From positions 1,024,001 through 1,088,000 of the forward strand of contig CAVXWP010000001.1 of the NCBI GenBank assembly GCA_963765495.1: DNA of 64,000 nucleotides, given 5' to 3'. Position numbers and translations under genes: made by a program. The notes beneath the pieces are model-generated. The model made no database searches and had not been told where the DNA came from. It worked only from the letters and a program-made list of their open reading frames with translations. Origin of the DNA: Blastocatellia bacterium. GTDB taxonomy: Bacteria > Acidobacteriota > Blastocatellia > UBA7656. Each line of letters opens with the position of its first letter. Position 1 is the stretch's first letter. Of the stretch, positions 9,630 to 50,953 are shown one piece after another.

Positions 9630-9663
9630 GGAAGTTGCCGCTGTACACAGGAGGACCGATCGA

Positions 9664-15580: not shown

Positions 15581-15955
15581 ATGACTCAATCTTATAACGG
15601 CAACGATACACATCTGATAGACCGTTCCGAGCTTTTATTGAGCGTAGATGGAGACACGCAACTGCTTGGTGTGCTAACGAATCTTTTTCTAAAGCATTGC
15701 CCGCAACAATTGGCCGATATCGGGCGCGCAATCGAGCGGAAGGAAAGCGAGGCCCTGGCGCGCACGGCCCATGCATTGAGGGGAGGCGCGGGACACTTTC
15801 TCACTCGAACCGCTTATAAGTTATTAACCGATCTGGAAATGATCGGGAAAGAGGGACGCCTCGACGATGTTGAAGGATTGCTTGAAGAGTTAGAGGCTGA
15901 AATGCTTGCGGTCGAGCGAGAGCTATCCGCATTCGTGATAGAACAACCCGTCTGA
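15581..15955 (+). CDS. Hpt (histidine phosphotransfer) protein
   Basis: ARTAHALRGGAG resembles the Hpt AHxLKG motif; adjacent to a receiver gene. Confidence 0.8.
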   Translation: MTQSYNGNDTHLIDRSELLLSVDGDTQLLGVLTNLFLKHCPQQLADIGRAIERKESEALARTAHALRGGAGHFLTRTAYKLLTDLEMIGKEGRLDDVEGLLEELEAEMLAVERELSAFVIEQPV

Positions 15956-16003
15956 AAAAATCTTAAGACGTCTGATTGCCTTAAGATTTTTTCGGACGGG
16001 TTG
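15945..16003. terminator. Long hairpin between convergent genes
   Basis: AACCCGTCTGAAAAAATCTTAAG ... CTTAAGATTTTTTCGGACGGGTT. Confidence 0.7.
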
Positions 16004-16020
16004 TAGGAAATCTTACCCGA

Positions 16021-17181
16021 TTATTTCCCGGCCAGGGCGACCACTTTTTCGGCCGCGTCCTTCATCCCGGAAGCAGTAGTGAAATTCAGGCCGGAGGTCT
16101 CTATCACCTCGCGCCCGCGCTCGACATTGGTTCCTTCGAGCCTGACGACCACAGGCACCTCGATGCCTATCTTGCGCGCGGCTTCGACCACACCCGTAGC
16201 AACCATATCGGTTCGCACTATGCCGCCAAAGATGTTTATCAACACGGCCTTTACGTTAGGGTCGGAAAGCAGAATCCTGAAGGCGTTCTCGACCCGCTCC
16301 TGAGATGCGCCACCGCCTACATCGAGAAAGTTGGCAGGCTCGCCGCCCGCCAGCTTTATGATGTCCATAGTCGCCATAGCGAGCCCCGCCCCGTTGACCA
16401 TGCATCCGATATTGCCGTCCAGCTTGATGTAATTCAGATCGAATTTCGAAGCCTCGATTTCAAGCGGGTCTTCTTCGTTCAGGTCGCGCAATTCGGCGTA
16501 GCTCTTATGGCGAAACATCGCGTTATCGTCAAAGTTCAGCTTTGCATCGAGCGCGTATAACTGATTGTCTTCCGTCAGCAGGAAGGGGTTGATCTCGAGG
16601 AGCGAAGCGTCCAGATCGACAAAAGCGCGATAGAGCGCAATCATAAAGCCAGCCGCTTTGTTTATGACCTCTTTTGGCAACCCTATGCCGAAGGCCAGCT
16701 TGCGAGCCTGAAAGGGCAATAGCCCTACGGCCGGGTCTATCGGCTCTTTCAATATCTTTTCCGGCTCGGTCGCGGCCACTTCTTCTATGTCCATGCCGCC
16801 TGCGGACGATGCCATAAAGACGAGGCGCGAGAGAGCGCGATCCAAAACTATCCCGAGATAAAATTCCTGTTTGATCTTCAGCCCTTCTTCGATCAGGAGG
16901 GTGCGCACCTCGCGGCCTTCGGGGCCGGTCTGGTGCGTAACCAGATTCATGCCGAGGATCTGCCGGGCTATCTCTTCGGCCTCGTCAGCCGTGCGAGCGA
17001 GTTTTACGCCGCCGCCCTTGCCGCGCCCGCCCGCGTGTATCTGCGCTTTTACGACCACGGGCAGGCCGAGTCTTTCCACAATTGCGCGCACTTCATCGGT
17101 CGATGTTACGACCTCGCCGCGCGGGACCGTCACTCCATATTTCGCCAGAAGCTGCTTGCCTTGATATTCGTGTATCTTCAT
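16021..17181 (-). CDS. sucC: Succinyl-CoA synthetase beta subunit
   Basis: [42 protein letters not shown]. Confidence 0.97.
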
Positions 17182-21283: not shown

Positions 21284-21315
21284 CTTTTTTCCCTTCGATG
21301 CTCTCTAGCCTGATG

Positions 21316-21380
21316 ATTTGAGATCTGAAATCTCGAATCTCAAATCTTAATTCCAAATTTCAAATCTCAGATTTGAGATA
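21316..21380. repeat. Heptamer array (TTTGAGA/AAATCTC class) between korA and korB
   Basis: atttgagatctgaaatctcgaatctcaaatc...tttcaaatctcagatttgagat. Confidence 0.75.
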
Positions 21381-25193: not shown

Positions 25194-25259
25194 CGTTCAG
25201 GCACAGGAGAACTCTATGTATACAGCCGTTCAGGCACAGGAGAACTCTATGTATACAGC
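25194..25259 (+). repeat. 33-bp perfect tandem duplication including RBS and start codon
   Basis: (CGTTCAGGCACAGGAGAACTCTATGTATACAGC)x2. Confidence 0.95.
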
Positions 25260-28200: not shown

Positions 28201-30744
28201 CACTCCGAATACAGCGGCAGCGCGGTTACGTTGACGGATCAGGTGAATCGAAAGATCAAGCGCGAAGGCGACGGATTGGGAAGGCTCGTGGAAGTGACCG
28301 AGCAAGACGGAACAGGCGCGCTGACGCAGGAAACAGACTATAGCTACGACCTGTTCGACCGCCTGGCAGAGGTCAATCAGGGCGGTCAGACTCGCGCTTA
28401 CAAATACGATGGCCTGGGACGGTTGCTATATGAGCGCATCCCCGAACAGAGCGCCACAATTAACGACGGGACAGGCACGTTGTGGTCATCGAAGTTCACA
28501 TATACCGACTTTAACGCCGTTGCTACGGCAACCGATGCGCGGGGGGTTGTAATAACCTACGGCTATGACGATTTGAACCGACTCATCTCGATTAGCTATG
28601 ACACGAGCAACGCGCCCGGTGTGGCTTCGACATCCACAGTCAATTACAATTATGATACGGACGAAAACAGCCCAACCACAGGTCTGCTGCTTTCAGTTGA
28701 GATAGGCTCACTTGCCGGGGGCGGCTACAAGGAAGAGTACGGCTATGACGGTTTTACCCGCCTCTCTTCGATAAAGCGATGGTTCAGCCCCTCTCAAAGC
28801 TACACGACCAGCTATCAATACAACGCGGCCTCGCAGAGGAAACAACTCACCTACCCATCGGGCAGAGTCGAAAGCTATTCCTATGACGACAAGGGAAGAC
28901 TAAGCTCAGGGGGAGGGTTGAAAGAGATCGCTTACAGCATCTCAGGCCAGATAACAAGCTCTCGCATAGGCGAATACAACCCCAATCCCAATGATGACAT
29001 TTACGTCGTTGAGAACTACACCTACAACGCCGAGCGAATGCAGTTGATCTCGCAGACGGCGACCAGACACTGGACCACCTGCACAGGGTCGGGCAAGACG
29101 CTAACCTGCACACCGCAAACGAGCGAGATTATGAATCTGAGCTATGACTACGAGGCGGCAGCCGGTGAGATGGGAGCAGGCTCGACATCGGGCAACGCGG
29201 GGCAGTTGATGTCAGTGACCGGGACTATCGATTCACAGCCCGAGAGCGCAGTCTATACCTACGACAATCTCGGCAGGCTTGTGACAAGCTCACAGACCAC
29301 AAACACAGTGAGCGCCGAGCGGCGATATGAGTATGACAGGTGGGGCAACCGCACAGGGATGTGGGATCAGACCACAGGCGGCTCTCAGATACAAAGCCTC
29401 AGCTTGGAGCAATCAGCCGGAGCGCCGACAAACCGCATCACAAACCTGAGCAATCCGTCCGGCACATCGGCCTACAGCTATGACGAGGCAGGCAATGTGA
29501 CAGGGGACGGTTTGCACAGCTACACATACGACGCGGAGAACCGGCTCGTCAGCGTGGATTTTGGGGCAACGGCTCTCTACAGCTACGATCAGGCAAACAG
29601 GCGATACAAGAGAGTCGTGGGGTCATCGAGCAGGCACTACATCTTTGAAGGGAGTCAGGTGATAGCCGAGCACGAGGGGAGCACAGGAGCCGTCGAGGTA
29701 GAGTACATCTATGCGGGCAATCGTATGGTAGCCAGAGTAGAATCGGGTGAGACGAGATATTATCTGAGAGACAGGTTGAGCGCGAGGGTGACGCTTGACG
29801 AGCAGATGAGTGTGGCAGGCAGGCAAGCACATCTGCCGTTTGGAGAAGAGTTGGGATTGAGCGGAGAACAGGAGAAGCACAGGTTTACAAGTTATGAGCG
29901 AGAGGGTGAGACGGGGCTTGATTATGCGATAAACAGGTGGTACTCGCCCGTAGTGGGAAGATTCCTGCAAGCAGACCCGTATGAGGGGAGCAATGATTTG
30001 AAGGACCCGCGAAGTTGGAATAGATATAGCTACACGCGAAATGTGGTGACAAACAGGGTAGACCCGTTGGGGCTGGATGATATACCGCCTGATCCTTGTC
30101 CAAATGGTTGTGATGATGAAAGTGTAATAACGCTAAGCGGGTGGGATTATTACCCCTATGGATGGGGAACCGGCGTTGGAGGAGTTGGTGCCCCTAGTCC
30201 GAGAAGTATAGACGGGCACAGCACCGGTCCAGGCGGGCTGGGTTATGCTGGCGCGGCGCGAAAGCATATAAAGAAAAAGTTCAAGCGGAAGTTTCCGTGT
30301 AAGAAAAATGCCGTGGCGGCAATGGAAGAGCTAAAGAAACGTTTCACGACCTTAGCCAGCTATACAAGTTCTAATGGTTCGTTCATAAATTTTGAAAACG
30401 TCCAGATTGCAAATGGCGCGACGATATCAATTTTGACTTCGCTCGTAATTAGTATGTTCCCAGACAGTATCCCCCTCTTTACTCGATTTCATGTAGATGT
30501 GATAAGGGAAAGCCCTACGAGTTGGACTTTTGGAACTCAGCGGGATCATGTCTTTTACCCAGGGACCATAAGATTTAGCCTGGCTGACAAGGGTAACGGA
30601 AAAGTCAAGTTTTCTATTGATCTTGAAGGTGAGACCAATGGAACGTCAGGCACTCTCGGCTACCTTATTGGAGGCGGTAGCTTCGAGGACGAATTATGGG
30701 ATAACCTAATCAATAGAGTGAAGACAGAAATCTGTGGAGAGTAA
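25216..30744 (+). CDS. Rhs/YD-repeat polymorphic toxin with N-terminal hydrophobic segment and Ig-like domain
   Basis: YD repeats; core end GRFLQADP...NRYSY...RVDPLGL; about 220-aa divergent C-terminal tip. Confidence 0.93.
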   Translation: MYTAVQAQENSMYTAQLSSRFETILRLSLKLLRCIFSRKLLCFALILNLFMWPGSQIALKQIPVFASAAVNTTATSLNYVSPLLSRLFSSTASTAQRRREKLADRLTHVSNIEISPGRLVAYEGESIIFTALPTDFAGRAVQGVKLTWGSSSPDKVRIDDSGQATFLQPGLAMVTCRAGAAAADAQVLIRSGQRPRQTDQEWLADQESFVGVNTYGKTASHGIALANALLNKLVPTAHAQPGVGFGTPSDIFYDEFYDEPRNLIGAPRNRISESTRLGIVHPEASNFNLTVPLLSLGGRGLGAGLSLLYNSRVWFRHGNTVTFNPVAGWPGPGFSLGPGRIDTYGPTTSLKYVLIDADGTRHYLGQGGSASQTVTLQTSDGTQITYVGNASTGGTLYSKDGTQVIISITNNRLLPVRIQDSNGNYITFGYMQASTTISPLAISYITDTLGRIIHFFYDSNGHLTSITAPGFGGTSQNPVTRTAAQFDYQSLSMSSSFSGLTVENAPSGPIQVLRRIVFPETGTGYLFTYSAYGMIYDYSLRKEMIDANGNVGDGTEQANVSFNYPTTGSSLTDAPAFTQRTETATDSPTSIYTYSDSTDSVAQTRTFVITRPDSSTLHLTRSTDSTSSANGLLVQSEIKDGGQISFGRSVYAYANDPGGSVQAQSVVNYDDAGAPTKIDFDYDQYGNLINSREYGYQTGGVWQVRRRTHITYKTDASYISAYLRNLMTLTEILDGQQNTNDADDVLTGKTSYTYDDYQAMGGMEDYNGAAAPPGHLSAYDASLTVRGNVTGKTEWIDLGANTSITHLSKYDIFGNVVKTQVSCCNEQSFTNEEENYWSQPIYVIKGSPSGVYLTTSLTDDFNTGLRVEKTDPNNQTISYSYNQAMLPTQMDLPTGASQTNDYDFDNLIYSKTLGYDDGGVTKTVTATDKYDGWGRLIESVDANGGQVNITYDAMGRVISRTNPFTPGQQPGPASTYEYDALGRVTVNTFPDGSTVHSEYSGSAVTLTDQVNRKIKREGDGLGRLVEVTEQDGTGALTQETDYSYDLFDRLAEVNQGGQTRAYKYDGLGRLLYERIPEQSATINDGTGTLWSSKFTYTDFNAVATATDARGVVITYGYDDLNRLISISYDTSNAPGVASTSTVNYNYDTDENSPTTGLLLSVEIGSLAGGGYKEEYGYDGFTRLSSIKRWFSPSQSYTTSYQYNAASQRKQLTYPSGRVESYSYDDKGRLSSGGGLKEIAYSISGQITSSRIGEYNPNPNDDIYVVENYTYNAERMQLISQTATRHWTTCTGSGKTLTCTPQTSEIMNLSYDYEAAAGEMGAGSTSGNAGQLMSVTGTIDSQPESAVYTYDNLGRLVTSSQTTNTVSAERRYEYDRWGNRTGMWDQTTGGSQIQSLSLEQSAGAPTNRITNLSNPSGTSAYSYDEAGNVTGDGLHSYTYDAENRLVSVDFGATALYSYDQANRRYKRVVGSSSRHYIFEGSQVIAEHEGSTGAVEVEYIYAGNRMVARVESGETRYYLRDRLSARVTLDEQMSVAGRQAHLPFGEELGLSGEQEKHRFTSYEREGETGLDYAINRWYSPVVGRFLQADPYEGSNDLKDPRSWNRYSYTRNVVTNRVDPLGLDDIPPDPCPNGCDDESVITLSGWDYYPYGWGTGVGGVGAPSPRSIDGHSTGPGGLGYAGAARKHIKKKFKRKFPCKKNAVAAMEELKKRFTTLASYTSSNGSFINFENVQIANGATISILTSLVISMFPDSIPLFTRFHVDVIRESPTSWTFGTQRDHVFYPGTIRFSLADKGNGKVKFSIDLEGETNGTSGTLGYLIGGGSFEDELWDNLINRVKTEICGE

Positions 30745-30877: not shown

Positions 30878-31003
30878 TATAGCAGTTTTCGATTGCGTTT
30901 AGCTGTAGGGGCAACCCGAATGAATACATTTTATGAATGAATACATTTTATTATAGTTGCCCGGACCGCCCCTACAGCCTACATCCATTTGAAAACCACT
31001 ATA
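30878..31003. mobile_element. MITE-like miniature inverted-repeat element
   Basis: Ends TATAGCAGTTTTC / GAAAACCACTATA; inner IR GCTGTAGGGGC / GCCCCTACAGC; internal 17-bp tandem duplication. Confidence 0.6.
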
Positions 31004-33788: not shown

Positions 33789-33815
33789 ACAACTCCGTCG
33801 AGTGAAAAACACTTA

Positions 33816-33868
33816 GACAGGATTAACAAGATTCACCAGGATTAAAAGAGAATCCTGTTAATCCTGTC
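33816..33868. repeat. Inverted 9-mer arrays (ACAGGATTA class)
   Basis: gacaggattaacaagattcaccaggatt ... aatcctgttaatcctgtc. Confidence 0.8.
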
Positions 33869-33908
33869 AAAAAAATCCGGTTTTCCGGTCACACATCCGG
33901 GCTTTGTC

Positions 33909-39091: not shown

Positions 39092-39586
39092 ATGGAAAAC
39101 ATTGCGACGGGCAAAAACGAATGGGTGGTCCTGATAATATTTCTTGTGGCCTGTTTTGCAGTTGCGGGGCTCGGGTCGTTTGCCACGACCCCTGAGATAC
39201 GCGGCTGGTATCGAGGATTGCAAAAGCCCGCCTGGACTCCGCCCAACTGGCTTTTCGGGCCTGTCTGGACCCTGCTTTACGCGGCTATGGCCGTCGCCGC
39301 GTGGCTTATCTGGAAACGCGCGGGATGGTCGGAGGCAGGCACGGCATTGACTCTGTTTTTCATTCAGCTAGGATTAAACCTGGCCTGGTCATTCATTTTC
39401 TTTAAGTTTCACCAAACGGGCGCGGCACTGGCGGACATCGTTTTTCTGTGGATAGCCATCGCCGCGACTATTATAAAATTTGCCGAAATCTCGAACCCGG
39501 CGGCAATACTCTTAGTACCCTATTTGATCTGGGTAACTTATGCATCGGCGCTCAATCTGGCCATCTGGCGAATGAACGGCACGTGA
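39092..39586 (+). CDS. tspO: TspO/MBR tryptophan-rich sensory protein
   Basis: WY..LQKPAWTPPNWLFGPVWTLLY, QLGLNLAWS, PYLIWV. Confidence 0.93.
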   Translation: MENIATGKNEWVVLIIFLVACFAVAGLGSFATTPEIRGWYRGLQKPAWTPPNWLFGPVWTLLYAAMAVAAWLIWKRAGWSEAGTALTLFFIQLGLNLAWSFIFFKFHQTGAALADIVFLWIAIAATIIKFAEISNPAAILLVPYLIWVTYASALNLAIWRMNGT

Positions 39587-39688
39587 TGCGTGATTCGTGA
39601 CCTTAAATGAGTCTGTCTGTTAACTGTAACTTGCAAATTAGATAAATCACGCATCACGCATCACGCATCATTGAACGCATCACGCATT
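39581..39688. repeat. Inverted heptamer arrays (CGTGATG class) beginning at the tspO stop
   Basis: acgTGAtgcgtgattcgtga ... tcacgcatcacgcatcacgcatca. Confidence 0.88.
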
Positions 39689-40843: not shown

Positions 40844-42395
40844 TGTGATAGGCGGCGGGCTGGGAGGGTTGAGCGCGGCCATACACCTGCGGCTGGCCGG
40901 GTATGATGTAGCTATTTATGAGGCGAACGAGCGTGTTGGCGGGCGTGCAAATCTGATAGAACGCGACGGATTTCGCTTCGATACGGGGCCGTCGCTGCTC
41001 AATTATCCGTGGGTCTTCGAGCAGCTTTTTGAAGCGGCAGGCCGCCGCTTCGAGGATTACGTCACGCTCTTGCCCGTCGATCCTTCGGTGAGTTTTCAAT
41101 GGCCGGATGGTACTCGATTTACCCTGTCGAGCGATCTGCATCATTTGCTGGATGAATGCGAGCGGTTGGATTCGGGCTCTCGCCCTCGCGTGCTCGCTTT
41201 CCTGCGCGATGCCGAGGTAAAGTACCGGACCTCTTTCGATAAGCTTGTGACGCGCAACGAAGATAATTTTGTTAAATGGCTCGGCGCGCTCTCGCCCCTG
41301 GAACTCTTGCGGACATCGGTCTGGCGCTCGCTTGCAAGCGAACTGGGCCGCTTCTTTCGCAGTCGTTACATTTGCGAGGCGCTCGGGTCGTATGGGATGT
41401 ATCTGGGAGGGTCACCTTACGATCTGCCCGGGCTGTTTTCGATACTGCCTTATGGTGAACTGGCTTACGGTTTATGGCTGCCTAAGGGCGGCGTTTACGG
41501 ACTTGTCTCGGCGATTGAAAAGCTGGCCGGTGAACTGGGCGTTTCTATTTACACGAATAAGCGCGTGCGGCGAATCCGTACGCGGCAGAATCGAGTGGAG
41601 GCGATAGAGTTTGAGGACGGAAGCAGATGCGAAACTCGTCTGGTCGTTTCGAATGTAGATGTGCCGACTACGGATACGGAGTTGCTGAGCGGGGCGGGCC
41701 TTTCAGGGCGCGCGCGCAGGCGAGCCGGTCGAACGCGAATGACGCCCGGGGTCCTGACCTTTTACTGGGGCATACGCGGAGCGGTCGAAAATCTGGGCCA
41801 TCATACGATTTTTCTGCCGGAGGATTATCGCGCCGCCTTCGATGAGTTGCTAAAGCTCAAGCGCATACCGGAGCAGATGCCTTTTTATGTCAGCCTACCT
41901 TCGGCCACTGACCCTGATCTAGCGCCCGCAGGCTGCACATCTATGTTCGTGCTTGTTCCCACGCCCTTACTTAGCGAGATGTCTGAAGCCGATTGGCTGG
42001 TGATTACCCGAGATGTGAAAGCGCGAGTGATTACCCGGCTCCGGTTTCACGGAATCAAATTCGACCCGGCGCAAATAGTTGTCGAAGAGGTTTACACACC
42101 ATTTGAATGGCGGCGGCGTTTCGGGTTATATGACGGCTCGGCATTCGGAGCGGCGCACACTCTCTTTCAAATGGGACCGTTGCGCGCCCGCAATTACTCG
42201 CGAGAAATCGAAGGGTTGTTTTACACGGGCGCGTCTACCACGCCGGGAACAGGACTCCCCATGGTAGTGCTGGGGGGCAAGATGGTAGCCGAAAGGATTC
42301 AACGCATGTGGCCCCTGGCCGAGCGTGGTGAAGAGGCCGCCTTTGAGATGTCAAAGCTGAGGTCCGACATCTCGAATCTCAAATCACAAATCTGA
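40761..42395 (+). CDS. crtI: Phytoene desaturase family protein
   Basis: VIGGGLGGL, FRFDTGPS, GLFYTGASTTPGTGLPMV; start uncertain; C-terminal tail encoded by an AAATCTC-type array. Confidence 0.85.
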   Translation: MAGENHKARASYQSKADSQPIAYSLQPTVIGGGLGGLSAAIHLRLAGYDVAIYEANERVGGRANLIERDGFRFDTGPSLLNYPWVFEQLFEAAGRRFEDYVTLLPVDPSVSFQWPDGTRFTLSSDLHHLLDECERLDSGSRPRVLAFLRDAEVKYRTSFDKLVTRNEDNFVKWLGALSPLELLRTSVWRSLASELGRFFRSRYICEALGSYGMYLGGSPYDLPGLFSILPYGELAYGLWLPKGGVYGLVSAIEKLAGELGVSIYTNKRVRRIRTRQNRVEAIEFEDGSRCETRLVVSNVDVPTTDTELLSGAGLSGRARRRAGRTRMTPGVLTFYWGIRGAVENLGHHTIFLPEDYRAAFDELLKLKRIPEQMPFYVSLPSATDPDLAPAGCTSMFVLVPTPLLSEMSEADWLVITRDVKARVITRLRFHGIKFDPAQIVVEEVYTPFEWRRRFGLYDGSAFGAAHTLFQMGPLRARNYSREIEGLFYTGASTTPGTGLPMVVLGGKMVAERIQRMWPLAERGEEAAFEMSKLRSDISNLKSQI

Positions 42396-42408: not shown

Positions 42409-43218
42409 ATGTACGTCGAAAGATACGGAACGGGAACGAATGGCTATTTAGGGCTGCACGGATGGGGCGGCAGTCACCGGACGTTTGCGCCTCTGGTTCC
42501 TTATCTGCCCGAAGAGGCTGTTTTATATAGCGCGGACCTGCCCGGCTCGGGCAACTCGCCTGAGCCGCGCGAGTGGAGCTTGAAGGGAATCAGCGCGGAT
42601 ATTGCCGATACGATCCGAACAGTGGCCGACCGGAAAGTTACGATCATAGGCAATTGCAGCGGAGCTATACTCGGGCTTCTGGCCGCAAGACAGGCGAGTG
42701 ATTCGATAGAGCGGTTTGTCTTGATCGATCCGTTCGCCTACACGCCGTGGTACTTCAAAATTTTCGTGCAAACAAGCTGGGGCAAGTATGCCTATTATTC
42801 CACGTTTGCCAATCCTTTTGGCCGGTGGCTCACAAACCTTTCGCTCAAGCGCAAGCGAACAAAATCGTCAGACCTCACGCGGACTTTCAGCGCCGCAAAT
42901 CACGAGGCGACCTATCGCTATCTCAGGCTCTTATCGGAGATGAAAGAGGTTGGTCAGTTTGCTGATTTGCAGATGCCGATTGATATAGTTTACGGCGAAC
43001 GCACATTCGGCGCGGTCAGGCGCTCAATCGATTTATGGAGAGAGGTCTGGCCCGACCTCAGATGTTTTGAGCTTAAAGGAGCCGGGCACCTGCCTATCGA
43101 AGAGGCTCCAGAACAACTCAGCCGTATACTTTTTTCCCGCGCGGCGGATGAAATAAAAGTGGATGAAATAAAAGAGGACGCGGTTCCCCGGCTTGTGGCC
43201 GCCTCTGTCAAAGAGTGA
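42409..43218 (+). CDS. Alpha/beta hydrolase with GNCSG nucleophile elbow
   Basis: LHGWGG, DLPGSG, IGNCSG, GAGHLP. Confidence 0.85.
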   Translation: MYVERYGTGTNGYLGLHGWGGSHRTFAPLVPYLPEEAVLYSADLPGSGNSPEPREWSLKGISADIADTIRTVADRKVTIIGNCSGAILGLLAARQASDSIERFVLIDPFAYTPWYFKIFVQTSWGKYAYYSTFANPFGRWLTNLSLKRKRTKSSDLTRTFSAANHEATYRYLRLLSEMKEVGQFADLQMPIDIVYGERTFGAVRRSIDLWREVWPDLRCFELKGAGHLPIEEAPEQLSRILFSRAADEIKVDEIKEDAVPRLVAASVKE

Positions 43219-44168
43219 ATAAAAATAGAGAGGGATTTGTGCCAGAGGAGATATTCGATTTCATAGCTCGCCACAGACAGGCGTTGGAAAACTCGCTTGC
43301 GGCTCATTTGCCGGTAAGCGCTAGCCCTGGGACCCGGCGACTAAACGAGGCGCTTGATTATTCGATATTTCCCGGAGGCAAGCGCATGCGCCCTGTGCTT
43401 ACATTGCTTGGCGCTGTGATCGTAGGCGGGACTACAGCGCAGGCGCTCCCCGCCGCATGCGCGATAGAGTTTCTTCACACAAGCTCGCTCATACTCGATG
43501 ACCTGCCCGCGATGGATGATGCCGACCTGCGGCGGGGCCGCGCCGCAACGCACCTGATCTTTGGCGAAGCCATTGCAATCCTTGCAGCCCTGGCCCTGCT
43601 CAACAAATCTTATGCGCTGCTTGTTCAGGCTGCCCGCCAGACGGGAGCGGACTCGATTGCCGGGGCTCTCGTTTCGGAAGCGACGCGCTTGATAGGAGCA
43701 GACGGAATGATAGGCGGGCAGGCAGCCGATCTGGAATTGCATGTGGTATCGGTCGGAGCCGATGCGCTTGCGAGCCGCAGCTTGAAGACCACAGCCCTTA
43801 TGCGGCTCACGATGAGCGCAGGCGCATTGGTATGCGGCGCAAGCGAATTGGATGCAAACGCGCTCGCACAATTTGGCGAGTCACTGGGCACAGCCTATCA
43901 GATCGGCGACGATCTGCTTGATGAACTGGATGACAGCCGACTGACGGGCAAGAACAGTCGGCAGGATCGTCGCCATTTGCGCCCAAGCTACGTTGCCGAA
44001 CTGGGCGTGGAAGGAGCGCAGCGCATGGCCTTGAGTCTCGTAGATCAAGGCAAATCGGCTATCAGAGAACAATTCGGAAATCGCCCGGAAGCGCGCCTGC
44101 TCATCGAAGCCGCCGACCTGATTATGGGAAGACTCGGCCGCATGGAAAACGTGGGACGCGGGGCGTGA
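43215..44168 (+). CDS. crtE: Polyprenyl (probably geranylgeranyl) diphosphate synthase
   Basis: GGKRMRP, ILDDLPAMDD..RRG, GGQAADL, YQIGDDLLD; small residues before the first DDxxD. Confidence 0.85.
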   Translation: MNKNREGFVPEEIFDFIARHRQALENSLAAHLPVSASPGTRRLNEALDYSIFPGGKRMRPVLTLLGAVIVGGTTAQALPAACAIEFLHTSSLILDDLPAMDDADLRRGRAATHLIFGEAIAILAALALLNKSYALLVQAARQTGADSIAGALVSEATRLIGADGMIGGQAADLELHVVSVGADALASRSLKTTALMRLTMSAGALVCGASELDANALAQFGESLGTAYQIGDDLLDELDDSRLTGKNSRQDRRHLRPSYVAELGVEGAQRMALSLVDQGKSAIREQFGNRPEARLLIEAADLIMGRLGRMENVGRGA

Positions 44169-44273
44169 AAGGTGATTCGTGATCCGTAATGCGTGATCCG
44201 TGATTCGTGGGATTTGCAATTGCCCGTGAAAAGCCATTCGCCTGAAAATCACGCATCACCTTTCACGCATCAC
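44164..44273. repeat. Inverted heptamer arrays (CGTGATC/CGTGATT class) beginning at the crtE stop
   Basis: gcgTGAaaggtgattcgtgatccgtaatgcgtgatccgtgattcgtg ... tcacgcatcacctttcacgcatcac. Confidence 0.85.
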
Positions 44274-44281
44274 TATCAAAT

Positions 44282-45370
44282 ATGTCGCTAGTTCTGCTGA
44301 TCCTCGCCCTGACAATTCTTCTGGTGGTCGTGTGGAATGTTCTGGCCTGGCCCGGCTTCAAGGCCGCAGAGCCGGTTCACAATCGATTGGTTTCGGTGCT
44401 CATACCGGCCCGCAATGAAGAGGCTAACCTCGCGCGATGTATTGAGACCGTCCTTGAGCAGGGAGATATTGTTTTGGAGGTCCTGATCTATGACGACCAT
44501 TCGTCGGATGCGACCCCCGAAATAATACGCGAGTATGAAAGGCGTGACGGACGCGTTTGCCTCGTGGCAGCCGAAGAGCTTCCTGGCGGGTGGTGCGGAA
44601 AGAATTTTGCCTGCGCGCAACTGGCGCGGGCTGCCAAGGGCCAATGGCTGCTCTTTCTGGATGCCGATGCGCGGCTTGCAGACGGGGGCGTTCAAAAGAT
44701 GGTTGAGGAGGCCCGCCGCCGCCGGGTCACTTTGATTTCAGCCTGGCCCGCTTTGATTCTTGAAAGCTTCTGGGAAAAAGCGTTGATGCCTCTGCTCAAC
44801 TTTGTCGTCTTCACGATCTATCCCGCCCCGCTTTCGCTTGCGCGTACGGATGCGTCACTGGGAATAGCGCATGGGGCCTGCATAATGGTTGATCGCCTGG
44901 TGTACGGGCGGGTAGGCGGGCACAGCAGTGTGCGGGATCAGATTTTTGAGGATGTGAGGCTTGCGCAATTGTGGCGCGCGGAAGGCAATCGCGGGCTTTG
45001 CCTGGACGGGCAGCATATCGTGTGTGTTCGAATGTACACCTCGCTCAGAGAAATCTGGTTCGGATTTCAAAAGAATTTCTTTCCCGCCTTTCGCCAGGAA
45101 TTGAGCTTCTGGGCATTTCTCGCGCTTCACTTCGTCGTGTTCCTCTTGCCTTTTCTGCTGGCGGGCTGGACAGGCGGATGGTCAATGCGGCTCGCAGTCG
45201 CAAGCATTCTTGCAATGCGTTTGCTACTTGCGCTCCGCTTCCATCACCCGCTATGGTCCGCGCTGCTTCATCCCGTGGCCGAGATTATCCTGATTGCGCT
45301 CGGGCTCTCTTCGTGGTGGAGATCAAAGAGCGGCAAGGGCGTTGAGTGGAAAGGAAGACGGTATCAGTAA
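44282..45370 (+). CDS. GT2 glycosyltransferase, carotenoid glucosyltransferase-like (CruC/CrtQ type)
   Basis: VLIPARNEE, DDHSSD, GWCGK, FLDAD, FEDV, WKGR. Confidence 0.85.
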   Translation: MSLVLLILALTILLVVVWNVLAWPGFKAAEPVHNRLVSVLIPARNEEANLARCIETVLEQGDIVLEVLIYDDHSSDATPEIIREYERRDGRVCLVAAEELPGGWCGKNFACAQLARAAKGQWLLFLDADARLADGGVQKMVEEARRRRVTLISAWPALILESFWEKALMPLLNFVVFTIYPAPLSLARTDASLGIAHGACIMVDRLVYGRVGGHSSVRDQIFEDVRLAQLWRAEGNRGLCLDGQHIVCVRMYTSLREIWFGFQKNFFPAFRQELSFWAFLALHFVVFLLPFLLAGWTGGWSMRLAVASILAMRLLLALRFHHPLWSALLHPVAEIILIALGLSSWWRSKSGKGVEWKGRRYQ

Positions 45371-45445
45371 TCAGGGGCCGGTGGCCGGTGACACTTGGAG
45401 GGTATAAGTCTGATCCGTGAAATTCCGTTCAGATTTGTTTGAATT

Positions 45446-46912
45446 ATGCGAGAGAGAAGGGCGGTAATAATCGGGGGTGGGCTGGGCGGGCTTGCCGCCG
45501 GATTGCGGCTGGCGGTTCGCGGCTGGAAGGTGACTATCTGCGAGCAATCGAGCAGACCTGGTGGGAAGATGAACACGTGGGGCGAGCGCGGGTTTCGCTT
45601 CGATACCGGGCCGTCGTTGATCACAATGCCATGGGTCTTTGAAGAACTGTTTGAAGTTGCGGGCGTACGCCTGCGAGATCACATAGAGCTTTGTCAGGTG
45701 CACCCGCTTGCGGATTACATCTACGAGGATGGGACGCGATTCACTTATACGACATCATTGCCTGACTGGCTCGACACGGTGCGCGGGCTTGAGGCGCGTG
45801 ACGTAAATGGATTTCTGAAATTCATGGAGCTGGGCGCAAAGCTCTACGAAGTGTCCAAAGAGACTTTCCTGCGCCGCCGCCCTTTAGACCCGCCTGATGC
45901 GCGCTCGATGTCGGCGCTCAGACACATGCCTTTGCGTTACGGCTGGGGCAATTATCATCGCACGGTCGCGGCGCATTTCAAGAGCCCGCACCTCAGACAG
46001 CTTTATGATCGCTATCCGACATATGTCGGCTCGTCGCCTTATCAGTCGCCTGCGACATTGATAGTGATTCCCTATATCGAATATGCGTTTGGCGGCTGGT
46101 ATGTGAAAGGGGGGCTTTATCGGATTATCGAGAGCCTTATTGAATTGATCGGGCAGGCGGGCGCGGAATTGCTCACAGACGCGCGTGTTGAGCGCATTGA
46201 ACACGAAGGGAAAAAGGTGCGAGGCGTGAAGTTGAGCGACGGCACACGGCTGCCTGCCGATGTGGTCGTGATGAACGGAGACGCCTCGTTTGCGCCCCGG
46301 TTGTTAGGCGAAGACCCGGCGGCAGAATTGCCGCTATGTGAGCGGTCGCTTTCGGGGCTGGTATTTCTATTTGGCATCAAGCGCACTCTGCCGGATCAGC
46401 CGCATCACTCTATCTATTTTTCTTCCGATTATGAAAGCGAGTTTTCTCAACTTTTCGATCAGCGCCGCTTCCCCGACGATCCTACGATCTATGTCAACAT
46501 TCCGAGCCGAAGCGACCGGAGCGTGGTGCCCGGCGAGGGCGAAACGTTGTTTGTGATGGCCAACGCTGCTGCGGGCGGCGAAGACTGGACAGATGAAAAG
46601 ATATTTGAAGCGCGCAAGCTGATTTTTGAGCGGCTGAGTCGAGGCGGATTTCCCGACATCGAACCCTTCGTAGTCGTCTCTGATGTCTGGACACCGCAGC
46701 GAATTGCCCAAAGCTATTTAATGCCGGGCGGAGCCATTTACGGCACGCACTCGCACGGCTGGAGACGAGCCTTCCTGCGCCCGCCGAACAAAGATAAACG
46801 CCACGAAGGGCTCTATTACGTAGGCGGCAGCACTCATCCCGGCGGCGGAACACCTACTGTTTTGATGTCGGCCCGCATCACTACGGATTTAATTTTGAGT
46901 TTTGAGTTTTGA
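45446..46912 (+). CDS. Second phytoene desaturase family protein (CrtD-like 3,4-desaturase candidate)
   Basis: IIGGGLGGL, FDTGPSL, LYYVGGSTHPGGGTP. Confidence 0.85.
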   Translation: MRERRAVIIGGGLGGLAAGLRLAVRGWKVTICEQSSRPGGKMNTWGERGFRFDTGPSLITMPWVFEELFEVAGVRLRDHIELCQVHPLADYIYEDGTRFTYTTSLPDWLDTVRGLEARDVNGFLKFMELGAKLYEVSKETFLRRRPLDPPDARSMSALRHMPLRYGWGNYHRTVAAHFKSPHLRQLYDRYPTYVGSSPYQSPATLIVIPYIEYAFGGWYVKGGLYRIIESLIELIGQAGAELLTDARVERIEHEGKKVRGVKLSDGTRLPADVVVMNGDASFAPRLLGEDPAAELPLCERSLSGLVFLFGIKRTLPDQPHHSIYFSSDYESEFSQLFDQRRFPDDPTIYVNIPSRSDRSVVPGEGETLFVMANAAAGGEDWTDEKIFEARKLIFERLSRGGFPDIEPFVVVSDVWTPQRIAQSYLMPGGAIYGTHSHGWRRAFLRPPNKDKRHEGLYYVGGSTHPGGGTPTVLMSARITTDLILSFEF

Positions 46913-46920
46913 GTTTTGAA
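46893..46920 (+). repeat. Left heptamer arm (TTTTGAG)x3 + TTTTGAA
   Basis: Directly visible; supplies the TGA stop (46910-46912) of the upstream desaturase. Confidence 0.95.
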
Positions 46921-46944
46921 TTATGACTGATTCAGGAGGCAAAA

Positions 46945-47292
46945 ATGCCGGAAAGCGTTATTCAGAAAAAGAGTTTTGAATTTGCTCTCCAGATTATACG
47001 ATTATACCGAGAACTTCAGGTAGAGCATGAGTATGTGCTATCCAGGCAGTTACTGCGAAGCGGAACCAGTATAGGAGCCAATGTTGAAGAAGCCAGTGCC
47101 GGTCAAAGTCGTAAAGATTTTCTCTCCAAGATGGCTATTGCTTCAAAAGAAGCCAGGGAGACGAGATACTGGTTACGGCTATTGCAAGCATCCAGACTTG
47201 TGAAAATTGATGTGAAAAATGAGATTACTTTGGTTGATGAAATAATCCGAATTCTAACTTCTATAGTGAAAACAACCGGCGAAAGACCTTGA
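46945..47292 (+). CDS. Four helix bundle protein (TIGR02436 / 23S rRNA IVP-like)
   Basis: KSFEFAL, LSRQLLRSGTSIGANVEEA..GQSRKDFLSKMAIASKEARETRYWL; AGGAGG RBS; AT-rich. Confidence 0.93.
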   Translation: MPESVIQKKSFEFALQIIRLYRELQVEHEYVLSRQLLRSGTSIGANVEEASAGQSRKDFLSKMAIASKEARETRYWLRLLQASRLVKIDVKNEITLVDEIIRILTSIVKTTGERP

Positions 47293-48029
47293 TCAACTCA
47301 AAACTCAAAACTCAAAACTCAAAACTATTTATACTCCTCCTTTTATCAGTAGCATATGTCGTGATGTGGATTGGCGGCGTGGGCGTTCATGTCTTTGGCA
47401 ACGGATTGGTTGATGATACGCCGTGGGCGGCTCCGGTCTTTCTGCTGCTTGCCGGGCTCATAGTTGTTGTAACAACGAGCCGGTATGATCTGCCGGGTCT
47501 TCTTGCGGTGACGTTGTTGGGTTTTGCTGCGGAGGTTGTCGGGGTGCGCTATGGGTTTTTATTCGGAGCCTATGATTATACGCCCACACTTAACCCTCAA
47601 CTTTTCGGCGTGCCACTTGTGATGGCGAGCGCATGGCTTGTGCTTGTGGCCTATATCAAACAGGCGCTGGTGGGGTTTGATTTGCCCGCGTGGCTTGAGG
47701 TGTTGCTGTCGAGTCTCTGGATAACAGCTATAGATTTGATTATCGACCCGCTCGCCTCGGGCAAACTAGGGTACTGGCGCTGGGTGGAAGAGGGAAGTTA
47801 TTACGGCGTCCCGGCGCATAATTTTATCGGATGGTTCGCGGTGAGCCTGTTGATATTCGGCTTGATAAGGTTATGGAGCGGGCACAATTGGAAGAAAAAC
47901 ATCTGGGCCGGTTATGTCGGATTGAGCATAATTCTTTTCTTCACCCTGATAGCCCTCTCCCACGGGCTGCTTCTTGCCGGTGGAATCGGCATATTACTTT
48001 GCGCCGTTCAATTAATCAGTAGGCGGTAG
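47289..48029 (+). CDS. Carotenoid biosynthesis membrane protein, CruF (1,2-hydratase)/DUF422-like
   Basis: AEVVGV..GFLFGAYDY, FGVPL, DLIIDP, YWRW, GVPAHNFIGWF. Confidence 0.85.
   Translation: MINSKLKTQNSKLFILLLLSVAYVVMWIGGVGVHVFGNGLVDDTPWAAPVFLLLAGLIVVVTTSRYDLPGLLAVTLLGFAAEVVGVRYGFLFGAYDYTPTLNPQLFGVPLVMASAWLVLVAYIKQALVGFDLPAWLEVLLSSLWITAIDLIIDPLASGKLGYWRWVEEGSYYGVPAHNFIGWFAVSLLIFGLIRLWSGHNWKKNIWAGYVGLSIILFFTLIALSHGLLLAGGIGILLCAVQLISRR
47297..47324 (+). repeat. Right heptamer arm (CTCAAAA)x4, inverse of the left arm
   Basis: Directly visible; encodes NSKLKTQNSK at the N-terminus of the next ORF. Confidence 0.95.
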
Positions 48030-48140
48030 GCAAGTAGGCAGTTCTCGGAGTCGGGAACCACCTTTCCTTATGCATACGCCATGCTCTTTTTAGGAAGCCG
48101 TCAGTTCATTATCAATTGCCTACTGCCTACTGCCTACTGC
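48018..48140. repeat. Inverted heptamer arrays (GTAGGCA class) supplying the stops of both convergent genes
   Basis: agtaggcggTAGgcaagtaggcag ... tgcctactgcctactgcCTActgc. Confidence 0.88.
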
Positions 48141-48862
48141 GAAAGGCGGAAGTCGGCATAAAGCGGCAGATGATCGGAGGCGATCATCGCCGTGCGGCTC
48201 TTGTGCAGTTTCAGCCCTTCCAGTTTCAGCCCTTCATCAAAGTAGATATGGTCCAGGTGCAGGAAGGGAAGCACGCCGGGATAGGTCTTTGAGCGTTCCA
48301 GATGCTCGCGCACATCGGCGCTCTTGAGGTGCGCGCCAAGCAGTTGCGTAGTCAATCCGCGAGTCCACTCGTTGAAGTCTCCAAGCATTATCCGCTCGCC
48401 CTTTAACTCTTCATTCTTAAGTATGGCGGAATCTATGAGTTTGCGGGCCTGATGGCGGCGTTCCAAATAAGCCGTGCCTAGATGCACGTTGAAGACGTGG
48501 AGCAGCCGCTTTTCGCCTATCTCCAGGTCTGTGCGTAGGCAGCCGCGCTGCTCACGCCCGCGCACGCTTATGTCGTAATTGCGCGTCTCGCGTACGGGGA
48601 AACGGCTCAACACCACGTTGCCGTATGCTCCGCCTCTGTAACGGCGATTCTCTCCGAGCGCATAATCGAATCCCAGTTCTTTGGCCATAAACTGCGCCTG
48701 ATTCTGTTCGGGAGAAGTGTCTTCGATGCTCACGACTTCCTGAAGCGCGATTATATCCGCGTCTATTTCGCGCAGCACTTCCAGGATGCGAGTGGGACGG
48801 ACCCTGCGGTCCAATCCCCGACAACGATGGACGTTGTAAGTGACTATGCGTAACCTGTCCAT
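48134..48862 (-). CDS. Endonuclease/exonuclease/phosphatase family protein (YbhP-like)
   Basis: TYNVH, ALQEV, NVHLG, GDFNEW, LDHI, SDHLP. Confidence 0.9.
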
Positions 48863-48870
48863 CTGTTCTT

Positions 48871-50151
48871 TTATTGCTGACGTTCCAGTAACCATCCTAT
48901 TATTTCCTGAGCCTTCTCAAATATCGAGCGACCCTGCCATTCATGATAAGAGATAGCGCGGCTGTTGGCCAGATCGCTTGCGAAGTCTTTTTGTAAGCGG
49001 GAGGCGAAGGCCGAATCATAGGCGGCGAGATTGACCTCATCATTCAAGCCGAATGAGCGGGTGTCGAAATTGGTCGTGCCCACGACGCTCCACCTCGAAT
49101 CAACGATCATGATCTTGGCGTGTATCATCGAAGGCTCGTACTCGTAAATTTTCGCGCCCGCCCTGAGCAGATCGCCGTAGAGGCGGCGGCTCGATCTTCT
49201 GGTCAGTATATGATCGCTGTGGCGACCGGGAGTAATGATCTTGATTTCTACGCCGCGCTCTTTGATGGCGCGGACCATCTCATCACGGGCGCTTTTGTCG
49301 GGCAGGAAATAAGGCGTTGTGATCTGGATGCTCTGGCGCGCGGAAGCCAGCAGCGTTTGAAAGAGAATCCTGGCGCGAGTCGATGCGCCCGTCGTGGGCG
49401 AGCTGTCAATGACAAGCGCCCGGGTCGGTCCTTCGACTTCGCAAAGTGGAAAATATTCCGCCCCGGCAAGTATCTCGCCCGATGATTCGAGCCAGTTTTC
49501 CACAAAGGTGGACTGCAATCCGGTCACAGCCGTGCCCTCTAGGCGAAACATAGTATCGCGCCACCGCCGCTTTCCGCTCCTGCCCTTCAGCCAGTGATCG
49601 GCTATGCCTGCGCCGCCGATGAACCCGATTTCACCGTCAATGATTATAATCTCGCGGTGCGTGCGGTTATTGATGCGGGGGAGCGTGTACCATCGGATGG
49701 GGTGATACCAGCTGACGCGCCCGCCCGCATCCGTAAGCTCTTTGAAGTAGCTGTTCCAGGTAGCAAAGCTCCCGACCGCATCGAGCACGATATTGATTTT
49801 GACGCCCGCGCGCGCGCGTTCCGTGAGCGCCCGGACGAAGCGGTCCGCGACCTCGCCTTTTTGAAATATGTAGGCTTCGATATTGATGTTGCGACGCGCC
49901 TTGCTTATCGCCTCAAGCTCGGCTTCGTAAAACACCTCGCCGTTTGAGAGCACTTCGACGCGTCCCCGGCCCCGAACCTGGGAATCGGTTATGGCTTCGA
50001 GGATGCGCAGAAAATCCTCGGAGTCGAGCGAATCGGCGGGCGGTCCGGCTATTTTGTAAGGCAGCCCCGGCTCAAACAGCGCCAGAAAGAGCATCAGCGC
50101 AAGGAAGGCAATCGAGATGATTGCGATGACATTGAAGGCCGAGATGTCCAT
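48871..50151 (-). CDS. Cardiolipin synthase / phospholipase D family
   Basis: Two PLD motifs: [11 protein letters not shown] (variant) and IHAKIMIVD...GTTNFD. Confidence 0.88.
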
Positions 50152-50234: not shown

Positions 50235-50831
50235 CTTCCAGCATCACGTTTCCGTGACCTCCCTCATCGGGGTTGCTGGCTGGACCATTTCTTCGCCATT
50301 TCAGGCGGCGGGCGTATGGCCTCTACGCATCCCTTCATCCAAGGTTTGCTCGGAGTTGTCGTAGGAGGTGTACTCCCTTACGAGATTCTCCGAAATAGCC
50401 CGCTCCAGTTCTGCGGTTTTACCGAGGATTTGCAGTCTTTGAGAGAATTTGCCTCTGCACCGGGCAGAACAACAGGTAAAGGCAGTGCCTTTTTGCAAAA
50501 AGGTTTGACCTTTTCTTCTCTCGAAGATCAGACCACATTCCGGGCATTTCAAAACAACCATTTTTCGTCCGTGTTCGAAGTGATGTTTGCGAACGTGTTC
50601 GCCGTTGTTCATCACCTCAAGGTTTTCAATCCGGTTGTCTTTCTTATCCCGGTTTTTATGGTGCACAACTTCATCGGGATTGAGAAGCCTGCCAAGGTGA
50701 TTCTCGACTACGACTCTATGTTCCAGCACATAGCCATTAGCAGAAGCCTGCGGATGTCCAGAAACAAGAGCGTAGTTGTAATCTCCCTTGTGGATGATCT
50801 TCTCAATCTTCCACACAGAACGCTCCTATTG
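50235..50831 (-). ncRNA. Group I self-splicing intron (IC3-like), 597 nt
   Basis: 5' exon ends in U, intron ends in G; P1 CUUC/GGAG with U.G; P2 GUUCUGUG/CGCAGAAC; P3 GCGGGC/GCCCGC; P4 UCGGAG/CUCCGA; P7 GGCCAU/AUGGUC with AAGA J8/7; UCACG-GAAA-CGUGA in P9. Confidence 0.9.
50301..50816 (-). CDS. Intron-encoded HNH homing endonuclease with C-terminal Cys cluster
   Basis: [26 protein letters not shown]; CPECG...CCSARC. Confidence 0.9.
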
Positions 50832-50875
50832 AAGTCCGTTGCTCTATCCATCTGAGCTACGGGCGCAAAATAAAA

Positions 50876-50953
<78 letters not shown>

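Follow-up and report, generated by a model that had tools for sequence, protein, structure and literature searches.

Inverted heptamer arrays enclose a PF05635 four-helix-bundle gene in the carotenoid operon of a Blastocatellia bacterium

A 64,000-nucleotide stretch of the genome of a Blastocatellia bacterium (GTDB lineage Bacteria; Acidobacteriota; Blastocatellia; UBA7656; GenBank assembly GCA_963765495.1, contig CAVXWP010000001.1, positions 1,024,001 to 1,088,000 of the forward strand), referred to here as the window, contains a carotenoid operon that harbors a small gene cassette. The best hits of the neighboring genes likewise indicate an acidobacterial host of the Blastocatellia type. The operon has the gene order TspO, phytoene synthase, CrtI-like desaturase, alpha/beta hydrolase, polyprenyl synthase, glycosyltransferase, CrtD, cassette, and CruF. 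The cassette is formed by a ribosome-binding site and a single open reading frame (ORF) for a four-helix-bundle protein, positioned between two inverted arrays of heptanucleotides (Table 1). It is one of a class, in which this gene family and inverted heptamer arms belong together.

The cassette and its junctions with crtD and cruF

The complete heptamers, read directly from the sequence, are (TTTTGAG)3 followed by TTTTGAA at positions 46893–46920 and (CTCAAAA)4 at positions 47297–47324. A search for inverted repeats delimited arms of 33 nucleotides (46890–46922 and 47295–47327), which are 94% complementary and separated by 372 nucleotides. The double unit TTTTGAGTTTTGAG, with one mismatch allowed, occurs six times in the window, every time within the arms of the cassette. 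The expected count is 0.06, and six or more occurrences were not reached in any of 100 shuffled sequences. The window contains a single pair of TTTTGAG arms. The left arm lacks C, and TGA triplets within it shut all three incoming reading frames. The right arm lacks G and contains no stop codon in any of the three frames. The GC content across the cassette is 0.41–0.43, compared to approximately 0.56 around it. In the predicted RNA fold of positions 46870–47350, a 27-base-pair stem made of the two arms closes the cassette in both the minimum-free-energy and the centroid structures (z-score −3.6), and none of 100 shuffled sequences was equally stable.

The cassette is located between crtD and cruF, and not inside a 16S or 23S rRNA gene. 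A scan of the window against Rfam identified no family over the heptamer hairpins and returned one tRNA as the sole match. There is no match to a sigma-70-like promoter 5' of the cassette, which is weak evidence, since the consensus is that of sigma-70 from other phyla. No direct repeat outside the arms, of the kind expected from a target-site duplication, was seen when the cassette borders were inspected by eye, and the domain scan of neighboring genes detected no recombinase within approximately 5 kb.

The ORF of crtD enters the left arm by 20 nucleotides, and the protein ends with ...DLILSFEF*. The array thus provides six codons (ILSFEF) and the TGA stop. The junctions were compared with those of relatives through the termini of CrtD and CruF homologues. 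None of the 119 listed CrtD homologues (66–75% identity) has the C-terminus SFEF. After the residues ...ELI, the homologues carry a short charged tail, most commonly x-R-Y/F-E-xx, and judged from this comparison the array took the place of the native tail of CrtD. Because the array-encoded tail is absent from all 119 homologues, the crtD–cruF state in the window is derived. According to the sequence and the alignment of homologues, the TTG at 47289 is the only in-frame ATG, GTG, or TTG codon 5' of the first membrane helix of CruF. The N-termini of fifteen of seventeen aligned CruF homologues differ from that encoded in the window and do not contain INSKLK; MKLK and MILRK are among the N-termini seen in Blastocatellia genomes. 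The other two possess array-like N-termini, MINSKLKARSSKL (P0130) and MINSNLKSRISKL (P0163), with the beginnings MINSKLK and MINSNLK, which suggests that the same cassette arrangement is present in a few relatives. The overlap of stop and start codons in TTGA is typical of translational coupling, and the cassette gene and cruF are therefore putatively coupled.

Most of this anatomy had been described in the initial annotation, which was made from the sequence alone. Direct reading bears out the order of the arrays, ribosome-binding site, 115-residue gene, and (CTCAAAA)4, as well as the left arm that encodes the end and stop of the desaturase, the right arm that encodes the N-terminus of the CruF-like protein, and the overlap of TTG with TGA. 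The gene is AT-richer than its neighbors, as was noted there, and the insertion is derived relative to the homologues of the flanking genes. The view of the cassette as free of a transposase also holds. The proposed RNA stem of about 28 base pairs that loops out the gene agrees with the predicted fold, in which the arms can close a stem of 27–28 base pairs.

Table 1. Coordinates of the cassette, the adjoining carotenoid genes, and ORF-less heptamer pairs in the window
Feature	Positions	Strand	Details
Left arm	46893–46927	+	TTTTGAG three times, at 46893, 46900, and 46907; TTTTGAA at 46914; degenerate TTATGAC at 46921
Ribosome-binding site AGGAGG	46934–46939	+	5 nucleotides 5' of ATG 46945; on the loop side of the stem; direct reading
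Four-helix-bundle gene, 115 residues, PF05635/TIGR02436	46945–47292	+	pI 9.6; profiles and structure model
Right arm, CTCAAAA four times	47297–47324	+	translated as CruF-like residues 3–12 (NSKLKTQNSK)
TTGA overlap	47289–47292	+	cruF TTG (47289–47291) over cassette TGA (47290–47292)
CrtD-like carotenoid desaturase	45446–46912	+	Pfam Amino_oxidase, NCBIfam CrtD/crtI_fam
CruF-like carotenoid hydratase (PF04240)	47289–48029	+	start codon and first residues come from the cassette
ORF-less inverted pair, GTGATYC-type units	44172–44273		gap between polyprenyl synthase and glycosyltransferase, same operon; z −3.8
ORF-less inverted pair, AGTAGGC / TGCCTAC	48018–48140		between the cruF stop and that of a convergent endonuclease/exonuclease/phosphatase gene; z −6.4
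ORF-less inverted pair, CGTGATG / ATCACGC	39582–39670		exact fill of the gap between TspO and phytoene synthase; z −4.8
Further ORF-less inverted heptamer pairs	549–641, 4535–4631, 6654–6809		each fills an intergenic gap

The protein family and its association with inverted heptamer arms

Inverted heptamer arms accompany the gene family far beyond the window. Genome contigs were scanned with the cassette protein, and 80 homologous loci with 56–78% identity were surveyed, the genome of the window not being among them. The loci belong to Chloroflexota, Cyanobacteriota, Bacteroidota, Acidobacteriota, Abditibacteriota, Balneolota, Ignavibacteriota, Verrucomicrobiota, Thermodesulfobacteriota, and other phyla, and their neighboring genes were called from ORFs rather than taken from annotation. 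To detect arms, the flanks on either side of each gene were compared for their best inverted repeat without gaps, with a threshold score of at least 13 and a period of 7. With flanks of 150 nucleotides, inverted period-7 arms were found at 49 of 78 loci but at none of the 1542 control positions taken from these loci. With flanks of 250 nucleotides, they were found at 61 of 77 testable loci, compared to 2 of 1117 control positions, and both control matches proved to be additional four-helix-bundle cassettes. Distant paralogues in the same loci, identified using a profile built from the locus proteins, have inverted arms in 8/8 testable cases, with period 7 in six of them, and their units (AGAAGTT, AGGCCGA, TCAGAAN, TAGTAGT, AAAGACT, and others) are unrelated. 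The same holds for annotated copies on plasmids. The family is scarce on plasmids (31 of 72,556 records) and in phages (2 of 50,697). Eight plasmid copies, picked for taxonomic spread out of the 31 matching records and including copies from Treponema, Monoglobus, Cytophagales, Chroococcales, and a Chloroflexota, are 37–53% identical to the cassette protein, and all eight carry inverted period-7 arms, again with different units. The claim of the initial annotation that gene and arrays form one unit is thus overwhelmingly upheld by the enrichment among survey loci, paralogues, and plasmid copies.

The sequence of the units varies, and the relationship between the two arms is retained. The units of the survey loci form the family RARTTNN, with GAGTTTT in Chloroflexota, some cyanobacteria, Abditibacteriota, and the window, GAGTTAG in Nostocales, and RAATTTT or GAATGTT in Bacteroidota. 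Units across subfamilies also include AGAAGTT, AGGCCGA, TAGTGAT, and GATGAAG. The mean score of left arms against their own right arms is 16.6, compared to 9.6 against the right arms of other elements, a difference not reached in any of 2000 permutations. Three orthologous insertions 5' of a thiolase gene encode proteins that are 33–48% identical and have wholly different units, and their arms are still complementary. In 55 elements, left arms contain 1.4% C and right arms 1.6% G. The left arm shuts all three sense frames in 27 of these elements and two frames in 20. Since an inverted pair reads alike from either strand, the arms stop ribosomes from both sides. The median number of units per arm is 4.4 on both sides, with interquartile ranges of 3.4–4.7 and 3.7–5.2. 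The idea of five repeats for a pentamer was considered and is suggestive at most, because the median is 4.4 but the range extends from 2.1 to 20.1.

Two peculiarities of the arms were observed in individual loci. Nostocales cassettes (L007, L009, L017 at approximately 9890–10000, and others) have a conserved spacer of about 100 nucleotides with an internal hairpin between the left arm and the TTG start, and in loci with this spacer the arrays are expanded to 9–14 units. The spacer may be an internal promoter or a processing site. In other loci, arrays are themselves arrayed (L047 at 9310–9838 and 11398–11468, L012 at 9866–10512, L015 at 9919–10528). The heptamer block is either repeated many times upstream, at intervals of about 48–80 nucleotides, or shows nesting or duplication on each side, which suggests a higher-order expansion of the arms.

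The cassettes are inserted co-directionally between cistrons. On the upstream and on the downstream side alike, the longest adjoining ORF has the same direction as the cassette gene in 47 of 55 elements. Upstream ORFs often terminate inside the array, with endings such as FEF*, NEF*, or KF*, and downstream ORFs start within a few bases of the right arm. Insertion sites include the bioB–bioF junction (two loci), fadB-like–thiolase, the adaptor–permease junction of a resistance-nodulation-division (RND) system, and, read by eye, a preT–preA-like junction (two loci). The insertions in the plasmid loci L085–L088 separate hsdS from hsdR, cas2 from cas1 (antisense), a helicase-related gene from an N6-methylase gene, and a DUF1156 gene from a HEPN gene. 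Neighbors of the defense type are present in four of the eight inspected plasmid copies. Members of the family inside cas loci have been interpreted as evidence of a CRISPR-linked function (PMC3936711; PMC10910872), and these published associations could be insertions of the cassette kind. In two Chloroflexota loci (L004 and L006), an upstream gene of the endonuclease/exonuclease/phosphatase type ends with ...DHLPL.A.F followed by an array-encoded FEF*. A gene of the same family is present in the window at 48134–48895, where it ends at the hairpin 48117–48140, possibly by coincidence.

The cassette protein matches the profiles PF05635 (E = 4.8e-25, 88.3 bits, cut-off 33.8) and TIGR02436 (E = 7.4e-30, 103.4 bits, cut-off 24). 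Its nearest solved relative is PDB 2rld, annotated as "S23 ribosomal protein family" and containing five chains (sequence E = 3.8e-26). The AlphaFold2 model of the protein has four helices and a mean confidence score (pLDDT) of 93. Foldseek aligned the model to 2rld with a template-modelling (TM) score of 0.86, to 2gsc from Xanthomonas with 0.78, and more weakly to the accessory protein Avd of diversity-generating retroelements (DGRs; 4dwl, TM 0.74, E = 0.08), and also matched chains of the DGR ribonucleoprotein 8ub8/8ube. The earlier assignment to the 23S intervening-sequence protein family with an Avd-related structure is supported by these profile and structure matches. The bAvd profile PF22296 scores 20.2 bits, below its cut-off of 40, and no family among the PADLOC defense models matched the protein at E ≤ 0.01. 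The Xanthomonas family protein has been reported to be a homopentamer (PMC4990558). A basic character is common in the subfamily, of which 64 of 73 members have a pI above 8. The ratio of non-synonymous to synonymous substitution rates (dN/dS) is 0.05–0.56 in pairs with measurable dS, and in 7 of 12 pairs dS is saturated at a dN of 0.11–0.28. These substitution patterns indicate that the protein family is under purifying selection.

Compared with its flanks, the gene is AT-richer at every one of 71 loci, and its GC content follows that of the host (r = 0.91). Low GC is therefore a family trait, and for the same reasons it was rejected as a mark of recent transfer. In a quick tree, the window protein groups with a Chloroflexaceae protein and not with the two other Acidobacteriota entries (approximate likelihood-ratio support, SH-aLRT, of 93). 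Only 8 of 70 inner branches of the tree are well supported, and transfer is not proven by it. A single-sequence search places 10,062 clusters in the family (50% identity, E ≤ 1e-3). Some representatives are much longer than the cassette protein (P0378, 268 residues; P0368, 163 residues; P0383, 195 residues) and have the four-helix-bundle domain at the C-terminus. They are probably gene calls that extend across an arm, whose frames are open, or that are fused to the tail of the upstream gene.

ORF-less heptamer pairs and the decay of cassettes

The window contains 17 period-7 arrays, and the presence of inverted heptamer pairs without a gene elsewhere in it, as pointed out in the initial annotation, was confirmed. 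The six ORF-less pairs (Table 1) comprise at least five units, fill their gaps to within a few bases, and have predicted long stems with z-scores of −3.8 to −6.5, and none of 200 shuffled sequences was as stable. Three of the six are located at junctions of the carotenoid operon. ORF-less pairs that share their unit with a loaded cassette of the same genome were found in other loci (L029, L032, L002, L079, and L003 at 15724–16071).

The fadB-like–thiolase junction of Flavobacteriales exhibits a series of states. Five sites are loaded. In one site with intact arms, the gene is truncated at its 5' end, so that the last 52 residues (66–117) remain, with 63% identity (E = 1.4e-24). Other sites contain a 64-nucleotide degenerate heptamer remnant, a 140-nucleotide gap with remnants of repeats, or no heptamers. 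The truncated intermediate points to loaded cassettes that lose their gene and not to empty ones that acquire it, and the comparison of these sequences suggests that ORF-less hairpins can derive from decayed cassettes. The cassette had originally been interpreted as the loaded form of the empty elements of the window. The shared architecture, the occurrence of loaded, truncated, and ORF-less states at one junction, and the same-unit pairs in other genomes agree with this interpretation, but the units of the ORF-less pairs in the window itself are unrelated to that of the cassette, and the claim stands only in part.

Further repeats were observed in the window. Arrays and hairpins of GAGATTT and AAATCTC, which differ by one base from the GAGTTTT of the cassette, are present at 8656–8680, 9597–9630, 12141–12182, 21310–21380, and 42369–42393. 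The element at 12141–12182 is a perfect 20-base-pair hairpin with convergent ORFs on either side (z −9.8), and that at 42369–42393 adjoins the start of the alpha/beta hydrolase gene. The hairpins at 2138–2211 and 33813–33871 have in common the octamer GACAGGAT and arms of the AATCCTGTC type, and may represent a second repeat family. The first of them is a 35-base-pair hairpin with 97% complementarity between convergent ORFs (z −13.6). A perfect 33-nucleotide tandem duplication (25194–25259) covers the start of an 1842-residue ORF (25216–30744), and a perfect 17-nucleotide tandem duplication (30918–30951) is located shortly past its end. Within 50301–50952, the tRNA-Pro(TGG) gene at 50876–50952 on the reverse strand adjoins a 171-residue ORF, in which a histidine-rich, HNH-like stretch was seen by eye.

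Mode of action, alternative explanations, and significance

The closest known system is the ORF-bearing intervening sequence (IVS) of 23S rRNA in Leptospira, Coxiella, Xanthomonas, and Brucella. In Coxiella, an ORF of the S23p family, whose members are four-helix bundles, is located in the loop of an inverted-repeat stem; three tandem copies of GACAGAT and one of GACAGAA precede the ATG directly, with two or three copies present depending on the strain; RNase III cleaves the stem at the first repeat, and the GC content is below that of the genome (PMC4990558). The cassette shares with the rRNA IVSs a PF05635 protein, an ORF that is in the loop of a long inverted-repeat stem and sense to the host transcript, a GC content below that of the host, a sporadic distribution, and the existence of variants without ORF, since rRNA IVSs are known both with and without one (PMC4990558). 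In contrast to the rRNA IVSs, the host transcript in the window is the mRNA of an operon, each arm overlaps the coding end of a neighbor, one arm is translated, and both sides bear explicit heptamer arrays. The cassette has an intact ORF, with purifying selection in the family, whereas that of Coxiella is decaying and apparently unexpressed (PMC4990558). The cut by RNase III is known for Coxiella, but a cut in the window would part cruF from its start codon.

Other systems resemble the cassette in part. PF05635 is homologous to Avd and is the commonest family near DGRs (PMC10053308). The cassette protein shares with Avd the four-helix-bundle fold and the basic character, but it scores below the bAvd cut-off. 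There is no reverse transcriptase among the scanned neighbors (42409–46909 and 47289–50151, comprising carotenoid, endonuclease/exonuclease/phosphatase, and PLD genes), a scan that did not extend to template and variable repeats. Heptamer arms are not known as a feature of DGRs. Repetitive extragenic palindromic (REP) sequences are intergenic hairpins in operons, miniature inverted-repeat transposable elements (MITEs) are short inverted-repeat elements without a transposase, and integron cassettes combine co-oriented ORFs that lack promoters with a recombination site able to form a hairpin. In contrast to REP/REPIN, MITE, and integron elements, the sequence of the heptamer arms is not conserved within a genome, and each cassette has two arms in place of a single attC site. 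Moreover, no RAYT or integrase gene is nearby, and the cassettes occur singly and in ordinary operons.

Geobacter metallireducens has paired repeats on opposite strands between adjacent operon genes, for example proB–proA and nifD–nifK, which are composed of 3–5 tandem repeats of 7, 8, or 9 nucleotides with variable spacing and were interpreted as sites of unknown global regulators such as IHF or HU (Aklujkar 2009, PMC2700814). The main text and the 13 searched supplement files of that study contain no link of the repeats to S23 or four-helix-bundle genes (PMC2700814). Arrays of 2–6 copies of TAACTGA, for which horizontal spread is suspected, are present in Beggiatoaceae, Cyanobacteria, and Bacteroidetes (PMC4679880). 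These tandem heptamers likewise adjoin start codons, overlap the ends of upstream ORFs, and occur in the same phyla. However, they are mostly single direct arrays (one inverted among 170 sets) of one fixed unit, and no enclosed gene is described (PMC4679880). Heptanucleotide "long simple sequence repeats" are a comparable known class. A description of the general rule, that PF05635 genes are enclosed by inverted heptamer arrays, was not found in the literature searched, outside of which were subscription journals.

Based on these comparisons, a mode of action of the cassette can be proposed. The explanation that we favor, and to which we assign an even chance of being correct, is that the cassette is a copy of a widespread and apparently undescribed class of elements that works like the ORF-bearing 23S rRNA IVS, but in a protein-coding operon. 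The unit would consist of paired inverted heptamer arrays, with a C-free 5' arm and a G-free 3' arm of typically 4–5 units each, around a ribosome-binding site and one PF05635/TIGR02436 gene. Given the lack of a promoter-like site of its own and the co-directional position, the cassette presumably depends on read-through of the host operon for its transcription. The arms may make the insertion tolerable. The 5' arm would halt entering ribosomes, which would give CrtD the tail ILSFEF*, and the 3' arm would be open to translation, carrying the N-terminus of CruF, whose TTG would be coupled to the TGA of the cassette. In untranslated RNA, the arms would pair into a stem of approximately 27 base pairs, a duplex of the kind that RNase III cuts, by analogy with rRNA IVSs. 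Ribosomes would usually hold the stem open, with translation of CrtD ending inside the left arm and the cassette TGA coupled to the cruF TTG, and the pairing and any cleavage would be confined to poorly translated RNA. ORF-less heptamer hairpins may be, at least in part, decayed cassettes. For the basic, Avd-like, and conserved protein, the most likely role is an action on nucleic acid that maintains or spreads the element.

Several observations weigh against this explanation. The decaying and apparently unexpressed S23p ORF of Coxiella implies that the protein is dispensable for IVS processing there. Among 311 arm mismatches, 49 are of the G:U type, 88 of the A:C type, and 174 of other types, counted on the sense strand, so there is no excess of G:U such as selection of the arms as sense RNA would predict. 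The mismatch spectrum is best explained by mutation bias from GC to AT and does not separate RNA from DNA. Many arms are merely 60–80% complementary, and together with the lack of G:U excess this means that selection for RNA pairing is not proven. Concerted evolution of the arms could yield the same co-variation. Relative to the right arm, the start codon of cruF (47289) lies toward the loop; cleavage therefore cannot affect every transcript, and the stem must often be held open by translation. In the survey, 16 of the 77 loci were below the threshold of the detector, several of them with degenerate period-7 arms just below it. The ORF-less units of the window (GTGATGC, GGGGGTC, AGTAGGC, and others) are unrelated to TTTTGAG, so these pairs are not simply the cassette minus its gene, and no direct link is shown. 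The RNA stem, its cut, and the movement of the element are inferred rather than directly demonstrated.

An unlikely alternative is that the element functions as DNA, with the arrays serving as multi-site terminal inverted repeats for a recombinase acting in trans or for a pentamer of the four-helix-bundle protein. The cassette would then be a non-autonomous transposon with a single passenger or helper gene, and the RNA stem a by-product. Like the arms, the subterminal repeats of some transposons are inverted multi-site arrays. The patchy distribution, the grouping of the window protein with that of Chloroflexaceae in the quick tree, the AT-richness of the gene in all 71 loci, the many unrelated insertion sites, and a mismatch spectrum that does not support RNA wobble pairing are consistent with a DNA element, as are the IS110 and IS481 elements at fixed distances from similar paired repeats in G. 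metallireducens (PMC2700814). However, the sequence of the units turns over fully while complementarity and the 7-nucleotide period stay, which is unexpected for specific sites unless the protein co-evolves with them. The absence, by eye, of a target-site duplication at the borders and of a recombinase within approximately 5 kb, the strong co-orientation with host genes, and the rarity on plasmids and phages also speak against it.

It is less probable still that the heptamer hairpins are a host device for intercistronic control or stability, comparable to REP sequences or the Geobacter sites, and that the protein is a repeat-binding regulator encoded inside its own site. The ORF-less pairs that fill intergenic gaps exactly across the window, three more of them in the carotenoid operon, would fit such a device, and so would a basic protein with a solved relative of five chains in the crystal and a median of 4.4 units, which is near five. 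Published interpretations took paired 7–9-nucleotide tandem repeats between the genes of operons for regulator sites (PMC2700814), and heptamers directly 5' of start codons for sites of post-transcriptional regulators (PMC4679880). However, there are at least six unrelated units in the window and one family member in its 64 kb, and one sequence-specific protein therefore cannot serve all of them. An arm can hold anywhere from 2 to 20 copies, the arms outlast the decay of the ORF, and the AT-richer gene that has replaced conserved host termini looks like an intruder. That a small gene came to lie in one loop by chance in a genome rich in heptamer hairpins, as the 17 period-7 arrays and several ORF-less pairs might suggest, is hardly credible, because arms were found in 61 of 77 family loci from many phyla but in only 2 of 1117 controls, both of them family members, and because TTTTGAG is the unit of the closest relatives in Chloroflexota and Cyanobacteria and not of the other arrays in the window.

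The proposal of an IVS-like cassette can be extended. We tentatively speculate, while considering the extension rather doubtful as a whole, that the cassettes are a distinct and widespread selfish element that spreads without a transposase by means of its ring protein of the Avd type and an intermediate in the form of a hairpin or of RNA. The rRNA IVSs would be copies that landed in rRNA, and the ORF-less hairpins MITE-like debris, and the element would explain much of the known excess of heptanucleotide repeats in prokaryotic genomes as well as the reported associations of PF05635 with CRISPR, restriction-modification, and DGR systems.

PF05635/TIGR02436, a large family of unknown function, gains a defined genetic context, which is a position between inverted heptamer arrays, co-directional between cistrons, in many phyla. 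The finding ties together the rRNA IVSs and heptamers of Coxiella (PMC4990558), the putative global regulator sites of Geobacter (PMC2700814), and the heptamer arrays at start codons (PMC4679880). It also provides a simple alternative reading of the guilt-by-association reports that place the family in cas loci (PMC3936711; PMC10910872). If the arms truly insulate the insertion and couple its translation to that of the neighboring genes, the cassette would represent a natural design for the low-damage insertion of a gene into an operon.

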